DNA from: Clostridia bacterium
GTDB lineage: Bacteria > Bacillota > Clostridia > UBA1381 > UBA9506
Assembly: GCA_017407515.1 (NCBI GenBank)
Contig: JAFQWH010000051.1
Coordinates: 1 to 63,486 of the forward strand
DNA: 63,486 nucleotides
Direction: 5' to 3'
This document shows positions 47,061-59,081 of this stretch, piece by piece. The notes under the pieces are model-generated. The model was given only the letters and a program-made list of their open reading frames with translations. It searched no databases and was not told the DNA's origin. The position numbers and the translations under genes are program-made. Positions within the stretch are counted from its first letter, which is position 1. Every line of letters begins with the position of its first letter.

Positions 47061-47873
47061 TTAATTATATTTTTCAATATCAATCCGGGAAACCAAGCCG
47101 CTAATCGGGCGTTCTAAGAACATAGAACCCAAACGGACAAACTCTGCCGGAACATCACTGACATAAAACTGATATTGGTCTTTTTCCGGTGCATCAGAAA
47201 GCATATCGTCCTTTGCCAGCTGCTCATAAATATCCTGAGCGACGCATTCCCCCGGGTTAATCAGCGAAACGCTGTCTCCCACTACCTCCTGAATCACTTT
47301 CCTCAAGAGCGGATAATGGGTACAACCTAAAATCAAGGTGTCGGCTCCGCTATCCATAATAGTCTGCAAATAGTCTTTCGCAATCATTTTAGCGGCTTCT
47401 TTTTCCGCATAACCATATTCCACTAAGGGTACGAACATAGGACACGCTACGGAAACCGTTTCAATCGCCGGATTTTCCTCTTTGATAAAGGCACTGTAAG
47501 CACCGGAACGAACCGTACCCGTTGTACCGATAACCCCAACACGACCGTTTTTCGTAACCTGTGCCGCCCGGCGGCTTGCCGCCTTGGTAACGCCCAAAAG
47601 CGGAATATCATACTGCCCGGAAAGCTTCGGCAAGGCAATAGAGCTTGCCGTTCCGCAGGCAGCCACAATTGCCTTTAAGGGAAAGGTATTTAAAAAACTT
47701 ATATCACTACGGGTATACTTTAAAACGGTTTCTTCCGACTTTGTTCCGTAAGGAATACGGCCCGTGTCACCGAAATACACGATGGATTCGTTAGGAAGCA
47801 GAGCCATCAGCTCTTTCATAACGGTGAGACCGCCCAAGCCGGAATCAAAAATTCCAATCCTTCTGTTATCCAT
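47061..47873 (-). CDS. murI: glutamate racemase
   Basis: IGIFDSGLGGLTV, catalytic Cys contexts ACGTAS and LGCTHYP. Confidence 0.95.
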   Translation of the reverse strand: MDNRRIGIFDSGLGGLTVMKELMALLPNESIVYFGDTGRIPYGTKSEETVLKYTRSDISFLNTFPLKAIVAACGTASSIALPKLSGQYDIPLLGVTKAASRRAAQVTKNGRVGVIGTTGTVRSGAYSAFIKEENPAIETVSVACPMFVPLVEYGYAEKEAAKMIAKDYLQTIMDSGADTLILGCTHYPLLRKVIQEVVGDSVSLINPGECVAQDIYEQLAKDDMLSDAPEKDQYQFYVSDVPAEFVRLGSMFLERPISGLVSRIDIEKYN

Positions 47874-47888
47874 GTTACGCCTCCGGTA

Positions 47889-48938
47889 TTATCTTGCAAG
47901 TCTGATGAGCCTGGTTACAAGCTCTTTACCGCAAATCCCCGATTCTCTCCACAGCATGGGGTACATACTAATATCTGTAAAGCCCGGCAAGGTGTTAATT
48001 TCGTTTAAAATAATGCTGCCGTCTTTTCTGTCAATAAAGAAATCTACTCTGGAAAGCCCGGAACAGTCTGCCGCTGTGAACGCACGGCAGGCAAACTCAC
48101 GAATGGTTGCCTGTTCTTCCTCCGTTAACTTTGCGGGAATTTCAATCCGTGCAGTATCGTTTTCATACTTTGTGGCATAGTCATACATGCCCTCTTTCAC
48201 AATTTCACCGACGCAAGAAGCCTCAGGTGCCTGGGTTGTTCCCAAAACAGCACATTCAACCTCGCGGCCGTCAACACAACGTTCAATCAGAATCTTCTCG
48301 TCCTCTGCTCCGGCAATTTTCAGGGCTTCCTCTAACGCCTCTCGCCCCGCAACCGATACAACGCCCACAGATGAGCCGGCACGGGAGGGTTTTACAACAA
48401 CCGGATAGCCAAAGGACTCTGTAATTTCTGTATGTACTGCCTCTGCATCATAACGGTCATTCCAGACAAAGAAACCATCAGTTACGGGAATACCCGCCTG
48501 CTTCAACACTTCTTTTGTCAAAACCTTATCCATGCACAAAGATGACGCCAGCACCCCGGGACCCACAAAGGGAATACCGGCAAGAGATAAAAGGCCCTGC
48601 ACGGTACCGTCTTCTCCGTTTTTGCCGTGCAAAACCGGGTAAACAACATCTACACGGGTGACAGATACATCGCCGTTTTTATTAAACACCAACAGTCCAT
48701 GATGCTTCGGACTGGGGGACAGCACACAGGCTTTGTTGTTGCAGGCTTCCCAGGCTCCGGATTTAATCTCTGCCTGTGTTGCCTCTGTTAAAAACCAGTT
48801 GCCGCTTTTGTCTATTCCAACCGTAATCACATCAAACAAGTCTCTGTCTATGTAAGAAAGAACATTGTTTGCAGAAAGACGGGAGATCTCATGTTCAGAG
48901 GATTTGCCGCCAAATAAAACACAAACTGTTTGTTTCAT
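47889..48938 (-). CDS. ddl: D-alanine--D-alanine ligase
   Basis: ATP-grasp Ddl motifs (FGGKSSEHEIS, PVLHGKNGEDG, NEINTLPGFT). Confidence 0.95.
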   Translation of the reverse strand: MKQTVCVLFGGKSSEHEISRLSANNVLSYIDRDLFDVITVGIDKSGNWFLTEATQAEIKSGAWEACNNKACVLSPSPKHHGLLVFNKNGDVSVTRVDVVYPVLHGKNGEDGTVQGLLSLAGIPFVGPGVLASSLCMDKVLTKEVLKQAGIPVTDGFFVWNDRYDAEAVHTEITESFGYPVVVKPSRAGSSVGVVSVAGREALEEALKIAGAEDEKILIERCVDGREVECAVLGTTQAPEASCVGEIVKEGMYDYATKYENDTARIEIPAKLTEEEQATIREFACRAFTAADCSGLSRVDFFIDRKDGSIILNEINTLPGFTDISMYPMLWRESGICGKELVTRLIRLAR

Positions 48939-50159: not shown

Positions 50160-51266
50160 ATGAAAGATCTTCGTAACTATTTCAAAAAACTGGATTACGT
50201 GATAATTGTCATTGCAGCACTTTTAGGCATGTTAGGCATTTTAATGATTGCCAGTGCTACAAAGTCTGACGAGGGCAGCCGTGAGCTTTTAGTGCAGTCC
50301 ATGGCAATGGGGCTGGGCATTATTGCCATGTTTTTTGTAGCCGCCTTTGATTATGAGAACTACACCGATATTAAAAAATATCTGTATCTGGCAAGTGTTG
50401 CAATTCTGGTTTTCGTTCTTCTGTTCGGGCAAGGTAAAAGCGAAACCGGTGCTAACAGCTGGATTCGTATTGGTGGAATTGGCATTCAGCCTTCTGAGCT
50501 TGTCAAGCTTTCTTTCTGTATTACTTTCTCCATTCATTTATCCAAAGTACGTGAAACCATCAACACCCCGAAAACCCTGTTACAGTTGTTCTTGCATTTT
50601 GCTGTTCTGACAGGTCTGGTTGTTCTGCAAAATGATACGGGAACTGCTTTGGTGTTTGTCTTTATGTTCCTTTGCATGCTGTTTGCCGCCGGACTCTCCA
50701 TTAAATATATCCTTGCCGGCGTTGCCGCTTTTGTGGCCTTTATTCCCCTTGCCTGGTTTGTTTTAATGCAACCCTATCAGAGAGAACGTATTTTGGTCTT
50801 CTTAAACCCTGAGCGTGACGCAACCGGTGCCGGGTACCAGGTGCTGCAATCTAAAATTGCAGTTGGCTCCGGTGAGTTTTTGGGAAGAGGCTACATGAAA
50901 GGTCCCCAGAATCAGCTTGCCATGCTCCCGGAAAATGAAACAGACTTTATCTTCGGCGTTATTGGCGAAGAACTGGGGTTCATCGGTGCTGTTTTGATTA
51001 CTCTGCTGTTGGTGCTTTTAATCTGTCGCTGTATTTACATTGGCCTGCGTTCTAAAAACGATACCGGCTGTTTCCTCTGTATCGGCATCGCCGCTATGTA
51101 TGCTTTCCATACCTTTGAAAATATATTTATGTGCATCGGTCTTATGCCTGTTACCGGTATTCCCCTGCCTTTTTTAAGCTACGGCGGTTCTAGCGTACTG
51201 ACAAACTTTATTGCCGTCGGGCTGGTCCTTTCCGTCTGGACTCACCGGCGAACATTAAGTTTTTAA
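50160..51266 (+). CDS. SEDS-family peptidoglycan glycosyltransferase (FtsW/RodA/SpoVE)
   Basis: Ten-TM SEDS protein (QPSELVK, TDFIF, PLPFLSYGGSS). Confidence 0.92.
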   Translation: MKDLRNYFKKLDYVIIVIAALLGMLGILMIASATKSDEGSRELLVQSMAMGLGIIAMFFVAAFDYENYTDIKKYLYLASVAILVFVLLFGQGKSETGANSWIRIGGIGIQPSELVKLSFCITFSIHLSKVRETINTPKTLLQLFLHFAVLTGLVVLQNDTGTALVFVFMFLCMLFAAGLSIKYILAGVAAFVAFIPLAWFVLMQPYQRERILVFLNPERDATGAGYQVLQSKIAVGSGEFLGRGYMKGPQNQLAMLPENETDFIFGVIGEELGFIGAVLITLLLVLLICRCIYIGLRSKNDTGCFLCIGIAAMYAFHTFENIFMCIGLMPVTGIPLPFLSYGGSSVLTNFIAVGLVLSVWTHRRTLSF

Positions 51267-51354: not shown

Positions 51355-51431
51355 GCGCCCGTAGCTCAGCTGGATAGAGTGCCTGGCTACGAACCAGTAG
51401 GTCGGGAGTTCGAATCTCTCCGGGCGCACCA
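51355..51431 (+). tRNA. tRNA-Arg (anticodon ACG), CCA encoded
   Basis: Acceptor GCGCCCG/CGGGCGC, anticodon loop CTACGAA, T-loop TTCGAAT. Close in pattern to canonical bacterial tRNA-Arg(ACG). Confidence 0.92.
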
Positions 51432-52033: not shown

Positions 52034-53389
52034 TTATCTTTCCTCAATCGGCGTATAGCCTTGTTTTTCACAAACGCTCTTATATGCCGGACGGATAATC
52101 TTGCCGCCGTAGAGAACTTCTTCAATTCTGTGAGCACACCAGCCTACCATACGGGCAATGGCAAACATAGGCGTATACAGTTCCGACGGAATGTTCAACA
52201 TTTTGTAAACGAAGCCGGAATATAAATCCACATTGGCACACATCATTTTCTGACCGCGAACCTTAGCAAAAATTTCCGGTGTCAACTCTTCAATCATGCA
52301 GTAAAGACCAAACTCTTCTTCGTTACCGGTTACATCTGCAAGCTCTGCCGCTTTTTTCTTTAACAGAACAGCACGAGGGTCAGATATGGTATAAATCGCA
52401 TGGCCCATACCGTATATTAGACCGGAATGGTCATAGGTTTCCTTTTTCAAAGTTTTCTCAATATAGGCTGCTACCTGGTCGGCATCACGAATATCTTCAA
52501 TGTTGGCCTTGAAATCTTCAATCATGCCCATAACCTTGCGGTTCGCACCACCGTGACGGGGACCCTTTAAGGAACCAATTGCCGCTGCAATAGCAGAATA
52601 GGTATCGCTACCGGAAGAGGAAACCACACGGGTTGTAAAAGCGGAGTTGTTACCGCCGCCGTGCTCGGCATGAAGAATCAGTGCCAAATCCAGAATTTCA
52701 GCCTCTAAACGGGTATACTGGTTATCGGGACGAATCATATACAGAAAATTCTCTGCGGTACCGAGCTCTTTTTGGGGATGATGAATATACAGGCTCTTAC
52801 CGTCATAAAAATGGAGCTTGGACTGGTACGCATAGGCGACCATGGTCGGAACACGAGCAACTAACAGCATTGCCTGACGAATCATATTCAAAAGGTCTGT
52901 GCCGTCCGGATTGGGGTCATAAGAATAAGTAGAAAGCACTGCACGAGCAAGCTTATTCATAATATCCGGGCTGGGACAACGCATGATAATATCCTCACGG
53001 AAGTCAAAGGGCACGGGACGCAGTTCGCTGAGCAGTTCTTTAAAGTTCTCTAATTCATCTTTTGTAGGTAATTTACCAAACAAAATCAAGTAGCAAACTT
53101 CTTCATACCCAAAACGTTTTTCCCGTTCACAAGCAGAAACAATATCCACAACGTTAATGCCGCGATACCGCAAACGACCTTCGTCTGCCACCTTTTCATC
53201 ATCGGAAACGCTGTAGCCGTGAACATTACCAATATTGGTAAGACCTGCTAAAACACCGGTACCATCGCTGTTTCTGAGGCCTCTTTTAACTTTATAGTTC
53301 TGACTTTTTTCAGGAGGAATTTGTGCGTTTTCCAATAAAATCTCCTGAAAATTTTCTAATGCCTGATTAAATAAAGCATTGTTTTCCAT
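52034..53389 (-). CDS. citrate synthase family enzyme (citrate/2-methylcitrate synthase)
   Basis: 451 aa. Catalytic His contexts (LILHAEHGG, GMGHAIY) and the C-terminal Asp region are present. Confidence 0.9.
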   Translation of the reverse strand: MENNALFNQALENFQEILLENAQIPPEKSQNYKVKRGLRNSDGTGVLAGLTNIGNVHGYSVSDDEKVADEGRLRYRGINVVDIVSACEREKRFGYEEVCYLILFGKLPTKDELENFKELLSELRPVPFDFREDIIMRCPSPDIMNKLARAVLSTYSYDPNPDGTDLLNMIRQAMLLVARVPTMVAYAYQSKLHFYDGKSLYIHHPQKELGTAENFLYMIRPDNQYTRLEAEILDLALILHAEHGGGNNSAFTTRVVSSSGSDTYSAIAAAIGSLKGPRHGGANRKVMGMIEDFKANIEDIRDADQVAAYIEKTLKKETYDHSGLIYGMGHAIYTISDPRAVLLKKKAAELADVTGNEEEFGLYCMIEELTPEIFAKVRGQKMMCANVDLYSGFVYKMLNIPSELYTPMFAIARMVGWCAHRIEEVLYGGKIIRPAYKSVCEKQGYTPIEER

Positions 53390-53569: not shown

Positions 53570-54550
53570 TTATAAGTCCCCCGCTGTGTGGAACCAACCG
53601 CTGGAAACCTTCGGCATTTCTTTCCGTCCAGGTACCGGTTCCGGTTCCGGTACGTCCGGCGGTGTCTCCGGCGGTATAAAGGAGCCGGCTCCGGACACCG
53701 TTGCCAGGGTTTGAATAATTTCTTCCGAGGAAGGTCTGTCTTCCGGATTTACGGAAAGCATCTTCATAATCAATTCTCCAAACGCCGGAGGAATAAAGCG
53801 ATTATTAACCGTCAACTCTCCCCCGTTTAATACTGCCTCGAAAGGATAATCATATTCAGCTTGGTCAAAATATGGCAGAAACCCTGCAAAAAGCTCATGG
53901 AAAACCAGCCCCAGACTGAAAATGTCTGTTTTTTCAGTCAGCGTAACCTGTTCTCCTGCCATTGCCAGAAAGGTTTCCGGAGCGAGATATGTCAAGTCGC
54001 CACCCAACTCCACATCTTCCCGTGGTTCATTCTTAAAAAAGCCGGCATCAAAGTCAATCAGCTTCCCCGTATACTTGCCGGTTCTGGTTCTTTTAATCAT
54101 AATATTAGAGGGTTTAACATCAAAATGAATAATGTTTGCCCTATGTAACCAGAAAAAAGCAAAGGCAATAGATTTAATAAGCAAATATTTGTCCGGTACA
54201 GAAAGCGTAGACACTAAATTTGCGGGAATGGTATCCCCCGCCACCTTTTCCGTTACCACATAATACCGGCTGTCACACCGGAAAAATTCAACAATCCGAA
54301 CTAAGCTGCCATATCCGGCTTTGTTTAACGTATTATAAAAGGTTCTGTATCGGTTTTCAAAGGACAGACAATAATCCCGGCGGCTTTTCAAAAGTTCGGG
54401 AGACATAACCCCCTCGTCCATGGGATACACCGGCGTAATTAACTCTTTAATAAAGTATTCCCTGCCGTTTTTTGTGGCAAACCCCCATTTAGAAAAGCCA
54501 CTGTTTGCGTTGTTCAGTTCTGTCGTTAGTGTATAGCCGTTAATAACCAT
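53570..54550 (-). CDS. Ser/Thr protein kinase with Pro-rich C-terminal extension ending ...SSGWFHTAGDL
   Basis: Hanks-type core: lysine in YFIKEL, catalytic loop HFDVKPSN, DFD (DFG equivalent), and LAPE. No TM segment and no PASTA domain. Confidence 0.88.
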   Translation of the reverse strand: MVINGYTLTTELNNANSGFSKWGFATKNGREYFIKELITPVYPMDEGVMSPELLKSRRDYCLSFENRYRTFYNTLNKAGYGSLVRIVEFFRCDSRYYVVTEKVAGDTIPANLVSTLSVPDKYLLIKSIAFAFFWLHRANIIHFDVKPSNIMIKRTRTGKYTGKLIDFDAGFFKNEPREDVELGGDLTYLAPETFLAMAGEQVTLTEKTDIFSLGLVFHELFAGFLPYFDQAEYDYPFEAVLNGGELTVNNRFIPPAFGELIMKMLSVNPEDRPSSEEIIQTLATVSGAGSFIPPETPPDVPEPEPVPGRKEMPKVSSGWFHTAGDL

Positions 54551-54578
54551 GTATCATTCCCCAAAATAGTAAAATAGC

Positions 54579-55595
54579 TTATAAATCCCCTGCAGACTTG
54601 AAGAATCCGCCACTTTCTTCTTTCGCTCCTGCTGAAGTATGCCCGTCCGTAGGACGCGGTCTTCTCATTGTGGAGATAACACGAGGCTCACTTGCCGCAG
54701 GTGCAGGAGGCACAGAAGGCTCATAAGTCGGCGGTACATATGCCGCAGGGTCATATGCCGGCGGTTCATACGCCGCAGGGTCATACGTCGGAGTTGTTGC
54801 CGGCGGTTCGTACGCTGCAGGGTCATACATCGGAGTTGTTGCCGGCGGTTCGTATGATACAGGTTCATATGTCGTTGTCTCATAAGATACTGCTTCATCA
54901 ACCGTTTTTTTGCCTTTTGTAACCAGCACAATAATCAACGAAACAACCAGAAGCACAAAAATGCCTGCATAAATGCACATTTTCACAATGAAATTCAGAG
55001 TCCACTCTCGGCTCAGAACGAATTTTTCTCCCCAGTCCTCTTCTTCCATGGTTAAAACCATAGAAAACCCTTTCCAGGATATGTTGTAAAATAGATCTTC
55101 ATTATCCGCATTGGCAATCTTGCCATCCTTAATTTCTATATCGACAGTTTCTTTCTCATCATCGGATTCGTCATATCCTATCATTTCATCCTTTGTAATC
55201 TCTATACGAGTTAAAAATATTTCGTGATCTACTTTGTTTTCCTCACCGTCATAAATTTCATATACTTCTTCTACTTTCCAGCTGCCCTTAGGGTCTCTTG
55301 TAGCAAAAAACGCCAGCACACCGGTGGCAATAATAGCCACGCCTAACACAAGGGCAATAATCAGCTTAACCACGCCTCTTTTAGAACGGGGAGCCGGAAT
55401 TTCATCATATGTTTCTGATGCCGGAATTGTTTCAGGAATGTACTCGGCCATTTCAGGAGCAGGATCTGACACAACCGCTTCCGTTCCTAAGACAGCCTCC
55501 TCAAAAGGTACAGAGCCGCTTTCCTGCTTTGCACCGCAGTTTGTACAAAAAATTGCATCATCTGCTAAGTTTGTTCCACAATTAGTACAGTACAT
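54579..55595 (-). CDS. zinc-ribbon two-TM membrane protein with Pro/Tyr/Thr-rich cytoplasmic repeats and tail ...ESGGFFKSAGDL
   Basis: N-terminal CTNC-x10-CTNC ribbon, TM1 (LIIALVLGVAIIATGVLAFFA), an acidic loop domain of about 115 aa, and TM2 (MCIYAGIFVLLVVSLIIVLV). Then come YEPPATTP(M/T)YDPAA repeats and a tail matching the kinase C-terminus. Confidence 0.85.
   Translation of the reverse strand: MYCTNCGTNLADDAIFCTNCGAKQESGSVPFEEAVLGTEAVVSDPAPEMAEYIPETIPASETYDEIPAPRSKRGVVKLIIALVLGVAIIATGVLAFFATRDPKGSWKVEEVYEIYDGEENKVDHEIFLTRIEITKDEMIGYDESDDEKETVDIEIKDGKIANADNEDLFYNISWKGFSMVLTMEEEDWGEKFVLSREWTLNFIVKMCIYAGIFVLLVVSLIIVLVTKGKKTVDEAVSYETTTYEPVSYEPPATTPMYDPAAYEPPATTPTYDPAAYEPPAYDPAAYVPPTYEPSVPPAPAASEPRVISTMRRPRPTDGHTSAGAKEESGGFFKSAGDL
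54771..54854 (-). repeat. in-frame tandem repeat, 2 x 42 nt (40/42 identical), inside the zinc-ribbon protein
   Basis: Units at 54771-54812 and 54813-54854 encode YEPPATTPTYDPAA and YEPPATTPMYDPAA. Degenerate partial copies flank them across 54714-54884. Confidence 0.9.
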
Positions 55596-55629: not shown

Positions 55630-56568
55630 TTATGACTGTTGCATAAACTTTGTATATTCTTTTTGATAAGATTGCCACTTTACAGGAATCGGCAACGGCG
55701 ATTTAATATAATTCTGGTCAACAAAAGCCGTTCTTTTGCTGAAGCTTTTCTGCATAGAATAAAAATCTTCATAACCAAAAGCCGCCACACAAAGAGTATA
55801 ATCGTCCCCCGTAAATTCACGGATATTAGCGTGCATCAATGTTTGCCAGTCCAAAATATTTTTGGTTGAAAGCATGGTTCTCGTTAACAAAAATTCAAAA
55901 TCCATAGGAGATTTCAAATATCCGAAACAGCCGTCTGTTGCCGTTAAAAAAATCCCCGGTTTACTGAGCGAAATCGTTTTTTTGTGCAAAACAAAGTCCT
56001 TACTGCTGCAGATAACATTGGTCAGAACGCCGTCATCAAAAATATTGCTGAGAGCATCTTCACCGTTAATATCATCTTCTGAAAGCTGATGTAAACCGTC
56101 TTCATCTAAAAGATAACAACGGGAATCCCCTGCCCAGTAGCAGGTTGCCTCACCGTCTAAAACACAAACCATTGCCGCTGTTGTCGGGAAGGATTTCGTC
56201 AGGCTACCCATAAGCCTTCCGCCCTTATCACCGTAAGCATCACAGACTTTTAAGGCTCGCTTAATATAGCCTTTTAATGCCTCGTCCTGTCGCGGAGATT
56301 CCTCGAACCAGCTTTTAACGCCACCGCAAACGGCTCTGGAGGCAACGTAAGCTCCTGTTTTTTCGGAATAATTCCCGTACCTTTTAGAGCCAATGCCGCC
56401 GCAACCGTCAAAAACAGCAACTATGCTGTTGTTCTCCACTGTGGCATAATAATAAGAGTCTTCACCTTTACCAGGAACCATTTCTCCCGCAACTGCAAAG
56501 ATTGTATTCGGCTTTGTCAATGTATATTTTTTTGTTGATGATTTCTTCTTTTTATTCAACATACTCAT
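55630..56568 (-). CDS. PP2C-family Ser/Thr phosphatase
   Basis: Metal-binding motifs GEDSY, FDGCGG, ATDG and GDDYT are all present. The ATGA start/stop overlap with the vWA gene suggests translational coupling. Confidence 0.85.
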   Translation of the reverse strand: MSMLNKKKKSSTKKYTLTKPNTIFAVAGEMVPGKGEDSYYYATVENNSIVAVFDGCGGIGSKRYGNYSEKTGAYVASRAVCGGVKSWFEESPRQDEALKGYIKRALKVCDAYGDKGGRLMGSLTKSFPTTAAMVCVLDGEATCYWAGDSRCYLLDEDGLHQLSEDDINGEDALSNIFDDGVLTNVICSSKDFVLHKKTISLSKPGIFLTATDGCFGYLKSPMDFEFLLTRTMLSTKNILDWQTLMHANIREFTGDDYTLCVAAFGYEDFYSMQKSFSKRTAFVDQNYIKSPLPIPVKWQSYQKEYTKFMQQS

Positions 56569-57251
56569 ATTGTGTTTGTAATCGTATCAATAATCTGGTT
56601 ATAGTCCAATTCACTCAGACCGTTACCTGCCTGAGAGGGGAAATGTAAAACATTGTCCCAGTTCTGGGAAATTAAGTTCCAGTCCGGTGCATCGGGAGCA
56701 TACAGCACAAGACGCTTTGCGTTTCTGTCAATATAGCCGGTCTGCTGAACACCGCCCCACCATGCTGTCAGCTCGTTTAAGTCGCTTGCCATGCCGCTGG
56801 GATAGTACGGGCTGGTTCTGCCGAAGCCAAGCTTATGTGTTGCAGCATCTGTCCAAACAACAATAACCTGGCGTTTTTTCATACCCTCAGTTTCCCAGGG
56901 AGATTTGATAGCGTAAGCCAATGCTTCCAGACCGTCTTCCGGATCGTCACCGCCGCCGTCTGCTACTAAGCTGCGAACGCATCTTTCAAAATCGGCTGAC
57001 TGTTCGGGCAGCTTGAAGAAGTCTGTAACCAGCATAGCATTTTCAGCATCTGCCAGATAATCACGGAACGCAACGACGCGAACGCGAAGCTGACTGATGT
57101 GTTTATTTTTGCTTTCCATAACGCTGGTAACATCATGATAAAAGTTTAATGCGTTGTTTTTTACAATATCAATAATGTTATCCATACTGCCGGTACAGTC
57201 AATGCAGAAAACCATATCTACATTGTAAGTAATTTTATAATTGCTTGCCAT
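56565..57251 (-). CDS. cytoplasmic vWA-domain protein with MIDAS motif
   Basis: DCTGS (a DxSxS-type MIDAS), GGGDDPEDGLEAL and VVWTDA strands of a Rossmann-like vWA fold. No signal peptide or TM segment. Confidence 0.85.
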   Translation of the reverse strand: MASNYKITYNVDMVFCIDCTGSMDNIIDIVKNNALNFYHDVTSVMESKNKHISQLRVRVVAFRDYLADAENAMLVTDFFKLPEQSADFERCVRSLVADGGGDDPEDGLEALAYAIKSPWETEGMKKRQVIVVWTDAATHKLGFGRTSPYYPSGMASDLNELTAWWGGVQQTGYIDRNAKRLVLYAPDAPDWNLISQNWDNVLHFPSQAGNGLSELDYNQIIDTITNTI

Positions 57252-57795: not shown

Positions 57796-58152
57796 TTAAT
57801 AAGAATTAGCCACATATGCTAAAATACATATAGCAAAAATAACAAGTGCTATTACTGCAACCGCTGTCCAGCCTGAAGAAGAAGGCTTTTCATAAACCGG
57901 CGTTGTTTCTCTCTCTGTATCCCTAAAGACAGGTCGGGAATACGTTGATGCAGAAGACGAACCCCGATAGCCCATAGGAGCTGTTCTTCTTTCCATTTCC
58001 GGCGACCAGGCTCTTTCCACCGTAGCAGCTGCGACTCTGCCGGCTCCACAAAGCATACAAGTGCCTGAAGCTATCTCGTTTTCCGTTTCGCAGTTAGGAC
58101 AAACCCAACAATCTCTCGCCCGCCTATATTGTAAAATTACTTTTGTTTCCAT
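57796..58152 (-). CDS. RanBP2-type zinc-finger, tail-anchored membrane protein
   Basis: WVCPNCETENEIASGTCMLCG fits W-x-C-x2-C-x3-N-x6-C-x2-C exactly. The C-terminal TM is WTAVAVIALVIFAICILAYV. It is the first gene after the consensus promoter. Confidence 0.8.
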   Translation of the reverse strand: METKVILQYRRARDCWVCPNCETENEIASGTCMLCGAGRVAAATVERAWSPEMERRTAPMGYRGSSSASTYSRPVFRDTERETTPVYEKPSSSGWTAVAVIALVIFAICILAYVANSY

Positions 58153-58198: not shown

Positions 58199-58227
58199 AT
58201 TATATAATTTCTGTCGACATTTGTCAA
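58199..58227 (-). promoter_or_regulatory. perfect-consensus sigma-A promoter, TTGACA-17-TATAAT, for the six-gene operon
   Basis: On the minus strand, TTGACA is at 58227-58222, the spacer is 17 nt, and TATAAT is at 58204-58199. It lies about 45 nt upstream of ATG 58152. Confidence 0.75.
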
Positions 58228-58256: not shown

Positions 58257-58285
58257 ACAAAAAAAGAGCAGCCTTCGCTGCTCTT
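58257..58285 (-). terminator. rho-independent terminator after the upstream zinc-ribbon gene
   Basis: AGAGCAGC-CTTC-GCTGCTCT stem followed by T7 on the minus strand. Confidence 0.85.
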
Positions 58286-58304
58286 TTATAACGCTTATTA
58301 AATT

Positions 58305-59081
58305 TTAGTCTTCGTCACCGTCTAAAACGCTTTCAATTCTGTCCTTAGAATAAAGGTCACCAACGCCGCCAACGTACCATTTACCCTTGATTTTTGCTAC
58401 AACATATTCGTCAGTATCTGAGTCATCATCTTCGGAACCCTTGATGGTTACTTTTGCTTTAAGAACGCGAATATCCTGCAGGTCTTTCGCCTCATAGTCA
58501 TAATGTTCTTCTAAGTACTCACCAAGCTCTTTTACTTCTTTTTTCTTATACTTAGTAACCTTTTTGATCTCAACCTTGGTTTTTAATCTGTTACCAAATT
58601 CATCTTCCAGATCGTCAAGTTCTTCTTCAGCATTTTCTTTAAACTCTTCAATATAATCTTCTTTGCTGTCAATATCGTTATATTCGCTATCGATAGCTTT
58701 TTCTAACTCAATCGGGTCAATTGTAAGATTATAAATTGCTTTACCATCGCCCTTGGCCATAGCCTTATAAAGCTTCTTAAGAGCTTTTTCAGAACCGTGG
58801 GTAAATACGCCACAAGCAGCTAAGATAATCAGAACTAAAATAACCGCAACAATAGGAATTGCAATCTTAATAATTTTCTGAAGCTTATCATTCCCTTTTA
58901 CAACATCCACCGCGGAATCAAAAGCACCAGTTACTGCAGCTGTTACGCCGGCAACACTAGCCCCAGCCGGTGCACTTGCTTCTTCTACAACAGGTGCTGC
59001 TACGGGCTCTAAATTAGCACCGCAACCCTCACAGAATTTTGCTTCATCAGGATTAGCCTGACCGCATCTTTCACAAAACAT
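58305..59081 (-). CDS. zinc-ribbon single-TM protein with acidic extracytoplasmic domain
   Basis: CERC-x10-CEGC ribbon, Ala-rich linker, TM IAIPIVAVILVLIILAACGVF, and a charged outer domain of about 165 aa. It has its own promoter and terminator. Confidence 0.85.
   Translation of the reverse strand: MFCERCGQANPDEAKFCEGCGANLEPVAAPVVEEASAPAGASVAGVTAAVTGAFDSAVDVVKGNDKLQKIIKIAIPIVAVILVLIILAACGVFTHGSEKALKKLYKAMAKGDGKAIYNLTIDPIELEKAIDSEYNDIDSKEDYIEEFKENAEEELDDLEDEFGNRLKTKVEIKKVTKYKKKEVKELGEYLEEHYDYEAKDLQDIRVLKAKVTIKGSEDDDSDTDEYVVAKIKGKWYVGGVGDLYSKDRIESVLDGDED

Follow-up and report, generated by a model that had tools for sequence, protein, structure and literature searches.

A C-Terminal Motif Shared by a Kinase and Variable Partner Proteins in TerY-P-Like Operons of Clostridia, with an Integrin-Like vWA Protein as Candidate Reader

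Results

Two Neighboring Proteins of One Operon End in the Same Peptide

We analyzed a 63,486-nucleotide stretch of DNA from a Clostridia bacterium (contig JAFQWH010000051.1; the whole stretch is called the window below), in which an operon on the minus strand encodes zinc-ribbon membrane proteins, a standalone von Willebrand factor A (vWA) protein, a PP2C-family phosphatase, and a Hanks-type Ser/Thr kinase (Table 1). The kinase [open reading frame (ORF) 53570-54550(-), 326 amino acids (aa)] ends in KVSSGWFHTAGDL, at 53573-53611, and the adjacent zinc-ribbon partner, here called ZT [54579-55595(-), 338 aa], ends in EESGGFFKSAGDL, at 54582-54620. An earlier sequence-only reading had placed both ORFs and both tails at these positions, and direct reading of the translations confirmed this; the 8 of 13 identities that it counted between the tails became 7 of 13 on an ungapped recount of the last 13 residues, with the conservative pairs W/F and T/S in addition. 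Among the 51 nonoverlapping window genes that we compared, the runner-up pair of tails shares 5 of 13 residues. In a six-frame scan of the whole 63.5-kb window, the pattern G[WFY]F..[AGS]G[DE][LIVMF] was confined to these two gene ends.

Both genes do close with GGG GAY TTA TAA, as had been noticed. A recent DNA duplication was ruled out as the origin of the tails, because their DNA is identical at only 25 of 42 positions and synonymous sites differ (GCG/GCA and GAC/GAT). Chance was ruled out by conservation of the motif across more than 100 orthologs. The domain assignments also stood: the kinase matches Pkinase (E=9e-27) and has no hydrophobic segment, and the partner carries an N-terminal Zn_Ribbon_1 domain and two hydrophobic segments (residues 78-96 and 207-225). 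Pro-rich linkers precede both tails (21 Pro in 99 residues and 9 Pro in 28), again as first read.

The order of elements in ZT is a cytoplasmic zinc ribbon, a first transmembrane segment (TM; 78-96), an outside domain of ∼110 aa, a second TM (207-225), a Pro/Thr/Tyr-rich cytoplasmic linker, and the tail, a predicted topology that puts zinc ribbon and tail both in the cytoplasm. The tandem repeats of the linker lie at 54717-54869, with DNA periods of 15/30/42, and the EPR-containing block listed in Table 1, which the single ZT ortholog described below also has, may be a phosphorylation site or a second docking site. In the PP2C translation, we read all of the catalytic signatures DGCGG, GDSR, TDG, and DDYT.

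Table 1. Features of the operon and its upstream neighbor in the window (MIDAS, metal ion-dependent adhesion site; pLDDT, predicted local distance difference test score)
Feature	Position	Strand	Remarks
Ser/Thr kinase, Hanks-type, soluble, 326 aa, last operon gene	53570-54550	-	Pkinase E=9e-27
Kinase core tail W-F-H-T-A-G-D-L	53573-53596	-	Followed by stop codon 53570-53572
Kinase Pro-rich disordered linker, residues ~295-318	53597-53668	-	Ortholog column entropy 3.2-3.7 bits; pLDDT 75 falling to 46
Tail-bearing partner ZT, 338 aa	54579-55595	-	Zn_Ribbon_1 E=4e-8
ZT core tail F-F-K-S-A-G-D-L	54582-54605	-	Followed by stop codon 54579-54581
ZT cytoplasmic linker	54606-54920	-	Tandem YEPPATTP(M/T)YDPAA repeats; block EPR[VL]ISTMR[RK]xRPxDGHT
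PP2C-family Ser/Thr phosphatase, 312 aa	55630-56568	-	PP2C_2 E=1e-8
Standalone vWA, 228 aa, integrin-beta-I-like	56565-57251	-	VWA_4, VWA_2, weak Integrin_beta matches
vWA MIDAS loop D18-C-T20-G-S22	57186-57200	-	Kept in 52/52 vWA sequences of related loci
vWA MIDAS E105, in GGGDDPEDG	56937-56939	-	Kept in 52/52 vWA sequences of related loci
vWA MIDAS D135, in VVWTDA	56847-56849	-	Kept in 52/52 vWA sequences of related loci
Z3, zinc-ribbon single-TM protein, 169 aa	57275-57784	-	Zn_Ribbon_1; TM 88-106
Z2, RanBP2-type finger and C-terminal TM, 118 aa, first operon gene	57796-58152	-	TM 97-115
Z2 finger WVCPNCETENEIASGTCMLC, residues 16-35	58048-58107	-	W-x-C-x2-C-x3-N-x6-C-x2-C
Promoter-like site upstream of Z2	58199-58227	-	Perfect TTGACA-17-TATAAT; consensus match only
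Terminator-like hairpin between promoter-like site and preceding zinc-ribbon gene	58262-58287	-	Sequence pattern only
Preceding zinc-ribbon single-TM protein, 258 aa, acidic end ...LDGDED	58305-59081	-	Own promoter-like site 59189-59161

The six genes from the RanBP2-finger gene (Z2) through the kinase seem to form one unit, because the promoter match at 58227-58199 stands after the hairpin at 58287-58262. The zinc-ribbon gene at 58305-59081 probably forms a transcription unit of its own, since it has a separate promoter-like site and is followed by that terminator-like hairpin. Beyond the operon, a tRNA-Arg(ACG) gene [51355-51431(+)] lies between two genes that, from their translations, we take to be FtsW/RodA-like (50160-51266) and citrate-synthase-like (52034-53389); farther out are presumably Ddl-like (47889-48938) and MurI-like (47061-47873) genes. 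The flanks thus look like housekeeping genes and not like a defense island.

The Tail Is a Short Linear Motif Under Strong Selection

Relatives of the kinase occur by the hundreds in Clostridia metagenome-assembled genomes (MAGs), at 46-60% identity. Their linkers differ widely in length and sequence; almost all nonetheless end in ...WFxxAGDL. Among 119 kinase orthologs, the commonest residues are W(-8) in 106, F(-7) in 114, A(-4) in 105, G(-3) in 112, D(-2) in 112, and L(-1) in all 119, with entropies at these six positions of 0.77, 0.33, 0.70, 0.45, 0.37, and 0.00 bits, respectively. Linker positions -20 to -13 have entropies of 3.2-3.7 bits in the same sequences. The final three residues are GDL in 106 orthologs, GNL in 5, and GSL in 1. 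The low entropy at six positions establishes that the shared tail is real and strongly selected. The catalytic motifs of the kinase (K35, HFDVKPxN, and DFD) are invariant across orthologs.

The AlphaFold2 (AF2) model of the kinase has a mean pLDDT of 90.6, and its structural neighbors are CAMK-like. With 84 sequences as input, the kinase domain reached a pLDDT above 90, and the linker and tail (residues ∼295-326) fell from 75 to 45, in agreement with the disorder that had been proposed for the linker. AF2 did not predict docking of the tail onto its own kinase domain (tail pLDDT <50). The model, therefore, shows no hydrophobic motif packed on its own N-lobe in the manner of AGC kinases; docking in trans would still be compatible with it. 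A motif of eight residues is conserved inside a region that evolves fast by entropy and is disordered by pLDDT (<50), and it recurs on otherwise unrelated proteins (the kinase, zinc-ribbon miniproteins, two-TM sensors, an LRR_5 protein, multi-TM proteins, and a TIR-kinase). These are the marks of a short linear motif that strong purifying selection preserves in a disordered region.

The Kinase Keeps the Tail While Its Partners Turn Over

A kinase-profile scan of 185,579 species genomes yielded 54 true relatives, whose neighborhoods we call the related loci. Their hosts are Oscillospiraceae, Lachnospiraceae, Blautia, Ruminococcus, and two Succinivibrionaceae. They keep one gene order, in which one to three zinc-ribbon membrane proteins are followed by vWA and PP2C, then by zero to three variable proteins and, last, by the kinase. 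The vWA/PP2C/kinase triad co-occurs in nearly all 54 loci (PP2C in 50 of them), and homologs of Z3 make up 23 ORFs. Unrelated loci lack the RanBP2-finger pattern W.C..C...N.{6}C..C, which 39 of the 54 related loci contain, so that the RanBP2-finger protein looks like a fourth core component.

In many of these loci, one to three further neighboring proteins end in the same tail. We collected 35 nonredundant nonkinase carriers of the tail or of its local variant. Those without a TM number 23, mostly zinc ribbon-linker-tail proteins of 68-170 aa but also one TIR+kinase protein; another seven have two TMs with both termini inside, an LRR_5 (BspA-type) receptor among them; and the remainder include a few multi-TM proteins. 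The topology of every carrier puts the tail in the cytoplasm. ZT itself has a single ortholog, P0242, among 5.8 billion clustered proteins, too few for a count of tails across its family. The two are 45% identical overall and 92% identical over the last 12 residues, with GGFFKSAGDL unchanged, and the P0242 locus matches the window in gene order (partner, kinase, citrate synthase). The second tail carrier is, therefore, no fixed component. The sequence-only reading had proposed to check whether orthologous operons have the tail on exactly these two components; instead, the kinase nearly always bears it, and the second carrier is unrelated from locus to locus, turns over fast, and is present in zero to three copies.

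Several individual loci add to this picture of the system. In two Eubacteriales loci (L030:2802-4229 and L032:6835-8247), the tail-bearing partner fuses a TIR domain to a second kinase domain and ends in ...[YG]FS[KR]ASDLD, which hints at an immune or NADase-type output in some versions of the system. Two Succinivibrionaceae MAGs from gut samples (L049 and L050; Gammaproteobacteria) carry the same vWA-kinase-PP2C system with the kinase tail ...HPDDFD, and this occurrence would imply horizontal transfer across phyla. Locus L037 (9009-15989) encodes a pair of vWA paralogs, of which one has a DCTES MIDAS loop, and a kinase without a recognizable tail; two of its multi-TM proteins end in ...GF[QK][KT]P[DT]NLG, perhaps an additional class of tail. 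A cultured carrier of the system is Blautia caecimuris DSM 29492 (L031). In viral contigs, the kinase matched only four distant generic kinases, and the system is, therefore, not phage-borne.

The Tail Is Specific to the System and Covaries Within Loci

We then asked how far the motif extends beyond this operon type. A strict tail pattern matched 41 of 3071 ORFs in the related loci and 2 of the 180 window ORFs, whereas among 2150 ORFs of unrelated loci it matched none. We also scanned metagenome DNA for WFxxAGDL followed by a stop, taking our figures from the 120 matches listed and treating ORFs of at least 94 aa as real-looking genes. Among the matches listed, 26 end such ORFs, and 21 of these 26 adjoin kinase, vWA, or PP2C homologs; the remainder look spurious. 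As the carriers of the tail are confined to this system, its receptor is probably encoded by the system and does not belong to a general degradation or sorting pathway.

In divergent loci, the tails of kinase and partner shift together. The kinase tail FFKRAGDDDLL is paired with the partner tail [YG]FS[KR]ASDLD in L030/32, FF[RF]xAGEDDL with FF[YH]xDxDDL[AD] in L038-40, and [LP]W[RK]xA[ST]FD with NFKxx[ST][DS]FD[VED] in L043-45. Kinase and partner tails of the same locus share 4.64 of 10 residues compared with 3.68 ± 0.20 after shuffling, a value reached in 0 of 10000 shuffles, with the relatedness of loci left uncontrolled in this comparison. Because the tails of kinase and partner are shared and covary, a single common reader is expected. 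We are, thus, nearly certain that the tail is a conserved, portable, system-specific C-terminal motif, and we consider it quite probable that it docks the kinase and its partners onto one system-encoded reader.

The Wider Kinase Family Retains a G-x-L Element

An exhaustive hidden Markov model search returned 979 kinase representatives (50% identity clusters) at E<=1e-30, and we inspected the C-termini of the best 146 of these 979. A tail of the xGDL type is present in 31 and a DDL or FD variant in 18. Others have relaxed ends (AGEL, PTDL, PTDF) or belong to a basic class, in which L[RK]G[STD]L occurs one to three times. Where a zinc ribbon or FHA-like domain is fused to the kinase, the motif is internal and directly follows the kinase domain, as in ..FFYKPGSLSS.. 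and ..YFYKAGSLDDLD... G[DSTN]L is found in 42% of the C-terminal regions vs. 7.7 ± 2.2% in shuffles, with D (36), S (11), T (8), or N (4) at its variable position. By these counts, the constants across the family are Gly(-3) and Leu(-1), and the Asp position can be taken by a phosphorylatable residue. Such forms would fit a reader that recognizes G-x-L when x is acidic or phosphorylated. The kinase-zinc-ribbon fusions suggest that kinase and zinc ribbon act together and that a shared tail could replace covalent fusion.

Among members of the basic class (P0313, P0340, P0377, P0388, P0296, P0328, and P0336), Lys/Arg runs follow the L-[RK]-G-[STD]-L copies. Some of these copies read LRGDL and so include the classical integrin RGD triplet.

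The vWA Protein Is the Best Receptor Candidate

The vWA is the slowest-evolving protein of the triad: its median identity to the window protein is 63%, whereas the kinase domain reaches 45.5% and PP2C 43%. Its closest homologs, 120 among the matches listed, are all 71-92% identical. No NCBIfam family covers it. In its AF2 model (mean pLDDT 84), the top 50 Foldseek matches in the Protein Data Bank (PDB) are all integrin beta subunits (E∼4e-9). A profile search of PDB sequences gave integrin beta8/beta6 in 11 of 12 matches, the twelfth being a nonsignificant ARF-GEF (E=0.39). The motifs around D18/T20/S22, E105, and D135 align to DVSAS, DTPEGG, and MTDQ of integrin beta8, at a sequence identity to integrin beta I domains of only 13-18%. 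The vWA thus has the beta I-type MIDAS set (D-x-S/T-x-S, the Glu of DxPExG, and the Asp after beta4), invariant in 52 sequences. Compared with the canonical MIDAS (DxSxS...T...D), DxTxS and the final Asp are invariant, and the middle position is the Glu of the DxPEDG loop, not Thr.

Integrins offer two precedents for ligands of this kind. The fibrinogen gamma chain end AGDV-COOH binds almost entirely to beta3, where the Asp is a ligand of the MIDAS metal and a water links the terminal carboxylate to the adjacent (ADMIDAS) metal (PMC4813479). The laminin gamma1 C-terminal tail binds the MIDAS through a Glu at -3 (PMC8241838), and the top fold match of our vWA model, 7cec, is the integrin with this laminin gamma1 tail precedent (PMC8241838). 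The window ...AGDL-COOH differs from AGDV by a single residue, Leu for Val. With an intact MIDAS, the slowest evolution, and PDB relatives that are integrin beta I only, the vWA is by analogy the best candidate for the receptor.

We looked for traces of contact in the vWA residue between T20 and S22 (residue 21), which aligns with Tyr122 of beta3, a residue that touches the Asp and Val of the ligand. Almost all loci have Gly here. Exceptions are L031/33, with Ala and PEDL or AGDLQ tails, and three loci with Met and A[ED]DL or AGSL tails. In these three (L006:10001-11362; L029:10001-11362, Ructibacterium; and L209), a DCTMS instead of a DCTGS loop accompanies an AGSL kinase tail and A[ED]DL partners, a pairing that could be a compensatory change or a phosphorylatable version of the ligand. 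P0220, a vWA from L209 with a non-Gly MIDAS-loop residue, has a partner with the tail ...WFKTADDL; P0219, a CTY variant of the vWA (L207/208), has no kinase nearby, and the contig that bears P0209 (L211) stops too soon for this comparison. Elsewhere in the vWA, the residues EAL-AY/EAL-GY/EAL-AF and W-T-D vs. W-S-D follow the tail classes, as a signal of contact a hint only, for the tail classes are probably single clades. The covariation of residue 21 with the tail is likewise suggestive only.

A Docking Model and the Points Against It

Our best single hypothesis for the reader is the integrin-like MIDAS of the vWA, which we believe and doubt in about equal measure. We chose the vWA because of analogy and correlations, and from these we infer its role as receptor, the dependence of binding on metal, and the effect of binding on signaling. 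In the model, [GD]-[WF]-F-x-x-A-G-D-L-COOH would be a docking motif specific to one kind of signaling operon, presented on flexible cytoplasmic linkers by the kinase and its variable partners, and all carriers would dock at one common site of the conserved vWA. The Asp of the tail, its terminal carboxylate, or both would complete the metal coordination of the MIDAS, much as fibrinogen ...AGDV-COOH does on integrin beta3, and the W-F pair would anchor in a hydrophobic groove next to it. The tail would then act as a portable plug that wires the kinase and interchangeable inputs or outputs to one vWA hub, and PP2C would reset the state of phosphorylation. With a single MIDAS per vWA, the tails of kinase and partner would have to compete, as a switch, or be corecruited by an oligomeric vWA.

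A number of observations weigh against this model. At position -2, 5 of the 119 kinase orthologs have Asn and 1 has Ser instead of Asp, and members of the wider family often have Ser/Thr at this position, with the motif internal or placed before basic residues (LRGSLLKK). Asp and a free carboxylate are, therefore, not universal, and the strict form in which the docking idea was first put, an Asp carboxylate plus a free C terminus, proved too narrow, given that Asn, Ser, and Thr replace Asp and that the motif is internal in kinase-zinc-ribbon fusions. On the receptor side, the ADMIDAS Asp-Asp pair is unconserved (SMDN in the window; SMGN, SMGP, SMSP, and similar in orthologs), and the ligand cleft of integrin beta I is shared with an alpha subunit that has no counterpart here. 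The covariations are imperfect and confounded by phylogeny; for example, a kinase ending in GEDL is paired with a Gly21 vWA. Finally, two tails cannot share one MIDAS, so that simple corecruitment would need a putative vWA oligomer.

A bolder version would make the vWA a bacterial cytoplasmic counterpart of integrin beta I that reads acidic x-G-D-L, with Asp interchangeable with a phosphorylatable Ser/Thr. It is prompted by relatives that carry G-[ST]-L, LRG[ST]L repeats, or an AGSL kinase tail, and we hold it to be unlikely on balance. If this version were true, the kinase and PP2C could write and erase the ligand of the vWA, and integrin-like docking would assemble interchangeable LRR, TIR, and zinc-ribbon modules with the kinase. 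Recognition of AGD-hydrophobic-COOH by a beta-I-type MIDAS would then predate or parallel that of fibrinogen by animal integrins.

Alternative Readers

The tail might instead be a docking or substrate motif for PP2C or for a kinase domain acting in trans, in which case the Asp form would be a phosphomimetic of G-[ST]-L. Both enzymes match the vWA in how consistently they accompany the tail. In the wider kinase family, Ser/Thr often takes the place of Asp, also within a basophilic and often repeated L-[RK]-G-[ST]-L, which resembles CAMK-type substrate sites; the nearest folds of the kinase are CAMK-like; and Ser, Thr, and Tyr abound in the partner linkers. However, AF2 places no tail on the kinase domain, both PP2C and kinase evolve much faster than the near-invariant tail, which the vWA does not, and the local changes that track tail variants sit in the MIDAS loop of the vWA. 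We know of no C-terminal docking site on a bacterial PP2C, which also counts against docking there. We judge a PP2C or kinase reader unlikely, though it keeps some weight beside the vWA.

A reader outside the system could be a protease adaptor that takes the tail as a C-terminal degron, another housekeeping hub of the PDZ or TPR type, or a machinery for membrane association or sorting. An extreme C-terminal motif with a hydrophobic last residue is indeed like many degrons and PDZ ligands, and a lineage-specific external reader could likewise account for covariation of tails within a genome. Such a general signal should mark other proteins too, and it is this expectation that disfavors the idea: the tail was absent from the ends of all 2150 unrelated ORFs, only two copies lie in the 63-kb window, and 21 of 26 metagenome matches listed adjoin the triad. 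A degron of the ssrA/ClpXP type would be found on diverse unrelated substrates genome-wide, and we found the motif confined to this operon type; it is also unlike ssrA-type tails. Secretion or sorting was rejected, as the kinase has neither a TM nor a signal peptide and the two-TM partners keep the tail inside the cell. A role in membrane targeting is unnecessary in any case, because the tails of all carriers are cytoplasmic and the TM partners are already membrane-bound. The shared degron or sorting signal that the sequence-only reading had offered as its alternatives is, thus, disfavored by system-specific distribution and cytoplasmic tails, and we regard an external reader as improbable.

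Least probable of all, we think, is binding of the tail by zinc-ribbon or RanBP2-type fingers, which would form head-to-tail assemblies and recruit the kinase to the membrane: the zinc ribbon is the commonest domain among tail carriers, a RanBP2-type finger protein is encoded in 39 of 54 loci, and RanBP2/NZF fingers are known protein-binding modules (PMC6509490), but the zinc-ribbon proteins vary strongly in number and sequence, unlike the invariant tail, 15 of the 54 related loci gave no match to the RanBP2-finger pattern, and we found no structural precedent.

Discussion

We regard the operon as a variant TerY-P-like triad whose wiring principle we found nowhere described. TerY-P comprises a TerY-like vWA, a PP2C, and a Ser/Thr kinase (Anantharaman 2012; Gao 2020, as described in PMC11090510), and its canonical kinases carry a zinc ribbon or OB fold fused at the C terminus (PMC11090510). 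The operon shares with it the adjacent vWA, PP2C, and Hanks-type kinase genes and the association of zinc ribbons with the kinase module. However, the kinase of the window lacks the zinc-ribbon or OB-fold fusion, which is present in some distant family members, and ends in a linker and tail; the zinc ribbons are separate membrane proteins; the middle MIDAS ligand of the vWA is the Glu of a DxPEDG loop, where the canonical one is Thr; and there is an additional conserved RanBP2-finger membrane protein (39 of 54 loci). In a PADLOC search with a library whose TerY-P content is unverified, no family matched the vWA or PP2C, and only generic models matched the kinase. Our literature search on AGDL or GDL C-terminal motifs found nothing relevant, and a shared tail is not described for TerY-P.

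Other systems combine parts of this arrangement. In the ArnA/ArnB pair that represses motility in Sulfolobus, a vWA with a MIDAS (ArnB) and a protein with a RanBP2-type finger and an FHA domain (ArnA) are under kinase/phosphatase control (PMC6509490). The phosphatase there is PP2A, here PP2C, and ArnB has additional beta-sandwich and helical domains. The contact between ArnA and ArnB involves no shared C-terminal tail: the FHA domain reads phosphothreonines, and we found no FHA match in the seven proteins scanned (six operon proteins and the adjacent zinc-ribbon protein). Kaur et al. noted kinase-PP2C-vWA neighborhoods and proposed, as a general idea, that such vWA domains capture peptides; the vWA is predicted there to take up an extended peptide via the MIDAS (PMC7159879). 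In the vWA-MoxR ternary systems, effector-associated domains likewise place a conserved element on unrelated proteins and so link variable parts to a core (PMC7159879), but that element is a folded adaptor domain, where ours is a linear motif of eight residues, and no MoxR ATPase is present here.

The likeness to integrins is best taken as an analogy of mechanism and not as membership, because sequence identity is only 13-18%. What the vWA shares with integrin beta I is the fold and the signatures D-x-[ST]-x-S, D-x-P-E-x-G, and T/S-D. The ligands are alike in that each is a disordered C-terminal tail ending in A-G-D-hydrophobic-COOH, as in fibrinogen gammaC (...KQAGDV-COOH) on alphaIIb-beta3; the laminin gamma1 tail on alpha6-beta1 is a second case of such likeness. 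In contrast to an integrin beta subunit, the vWA is cytoplasmic and a standalone protein of 228 aa, without an alpha subunit, a hybrid-domain insertion, or a conserved ADMIDAS pair; the operon contains no propeller gene, and the upstream W-F anchor of the tail has no integrin counterpart. A C-terminal tail that binds hubs is known from SSB, whose acidic tail acts genome-wide, whereas the tail described here is specific to its system.

Triads of vWA, PP2C, and kinase are widespread in bacteria, and some act in phage defense, yet the role of the vWA is still guesswork. A tail of eight residues that can be synthesized, present on the kinase and on swappable partners, is a concrete candidate for the ligand of the vWA and thus makes the function of the vWA directly testable. 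The tail also accounts for how very different sensors or effectors can be linked to a single conserved core with no need of domain fusion. Should the vWA indeed bind it, the system would be a bacterial, intracellular parallel to the recognition of ...AGDV-COOH by integrins, and a search for the tail would be a simple rule for finding unknown inputs and outputs of the system in gut Clostridia.

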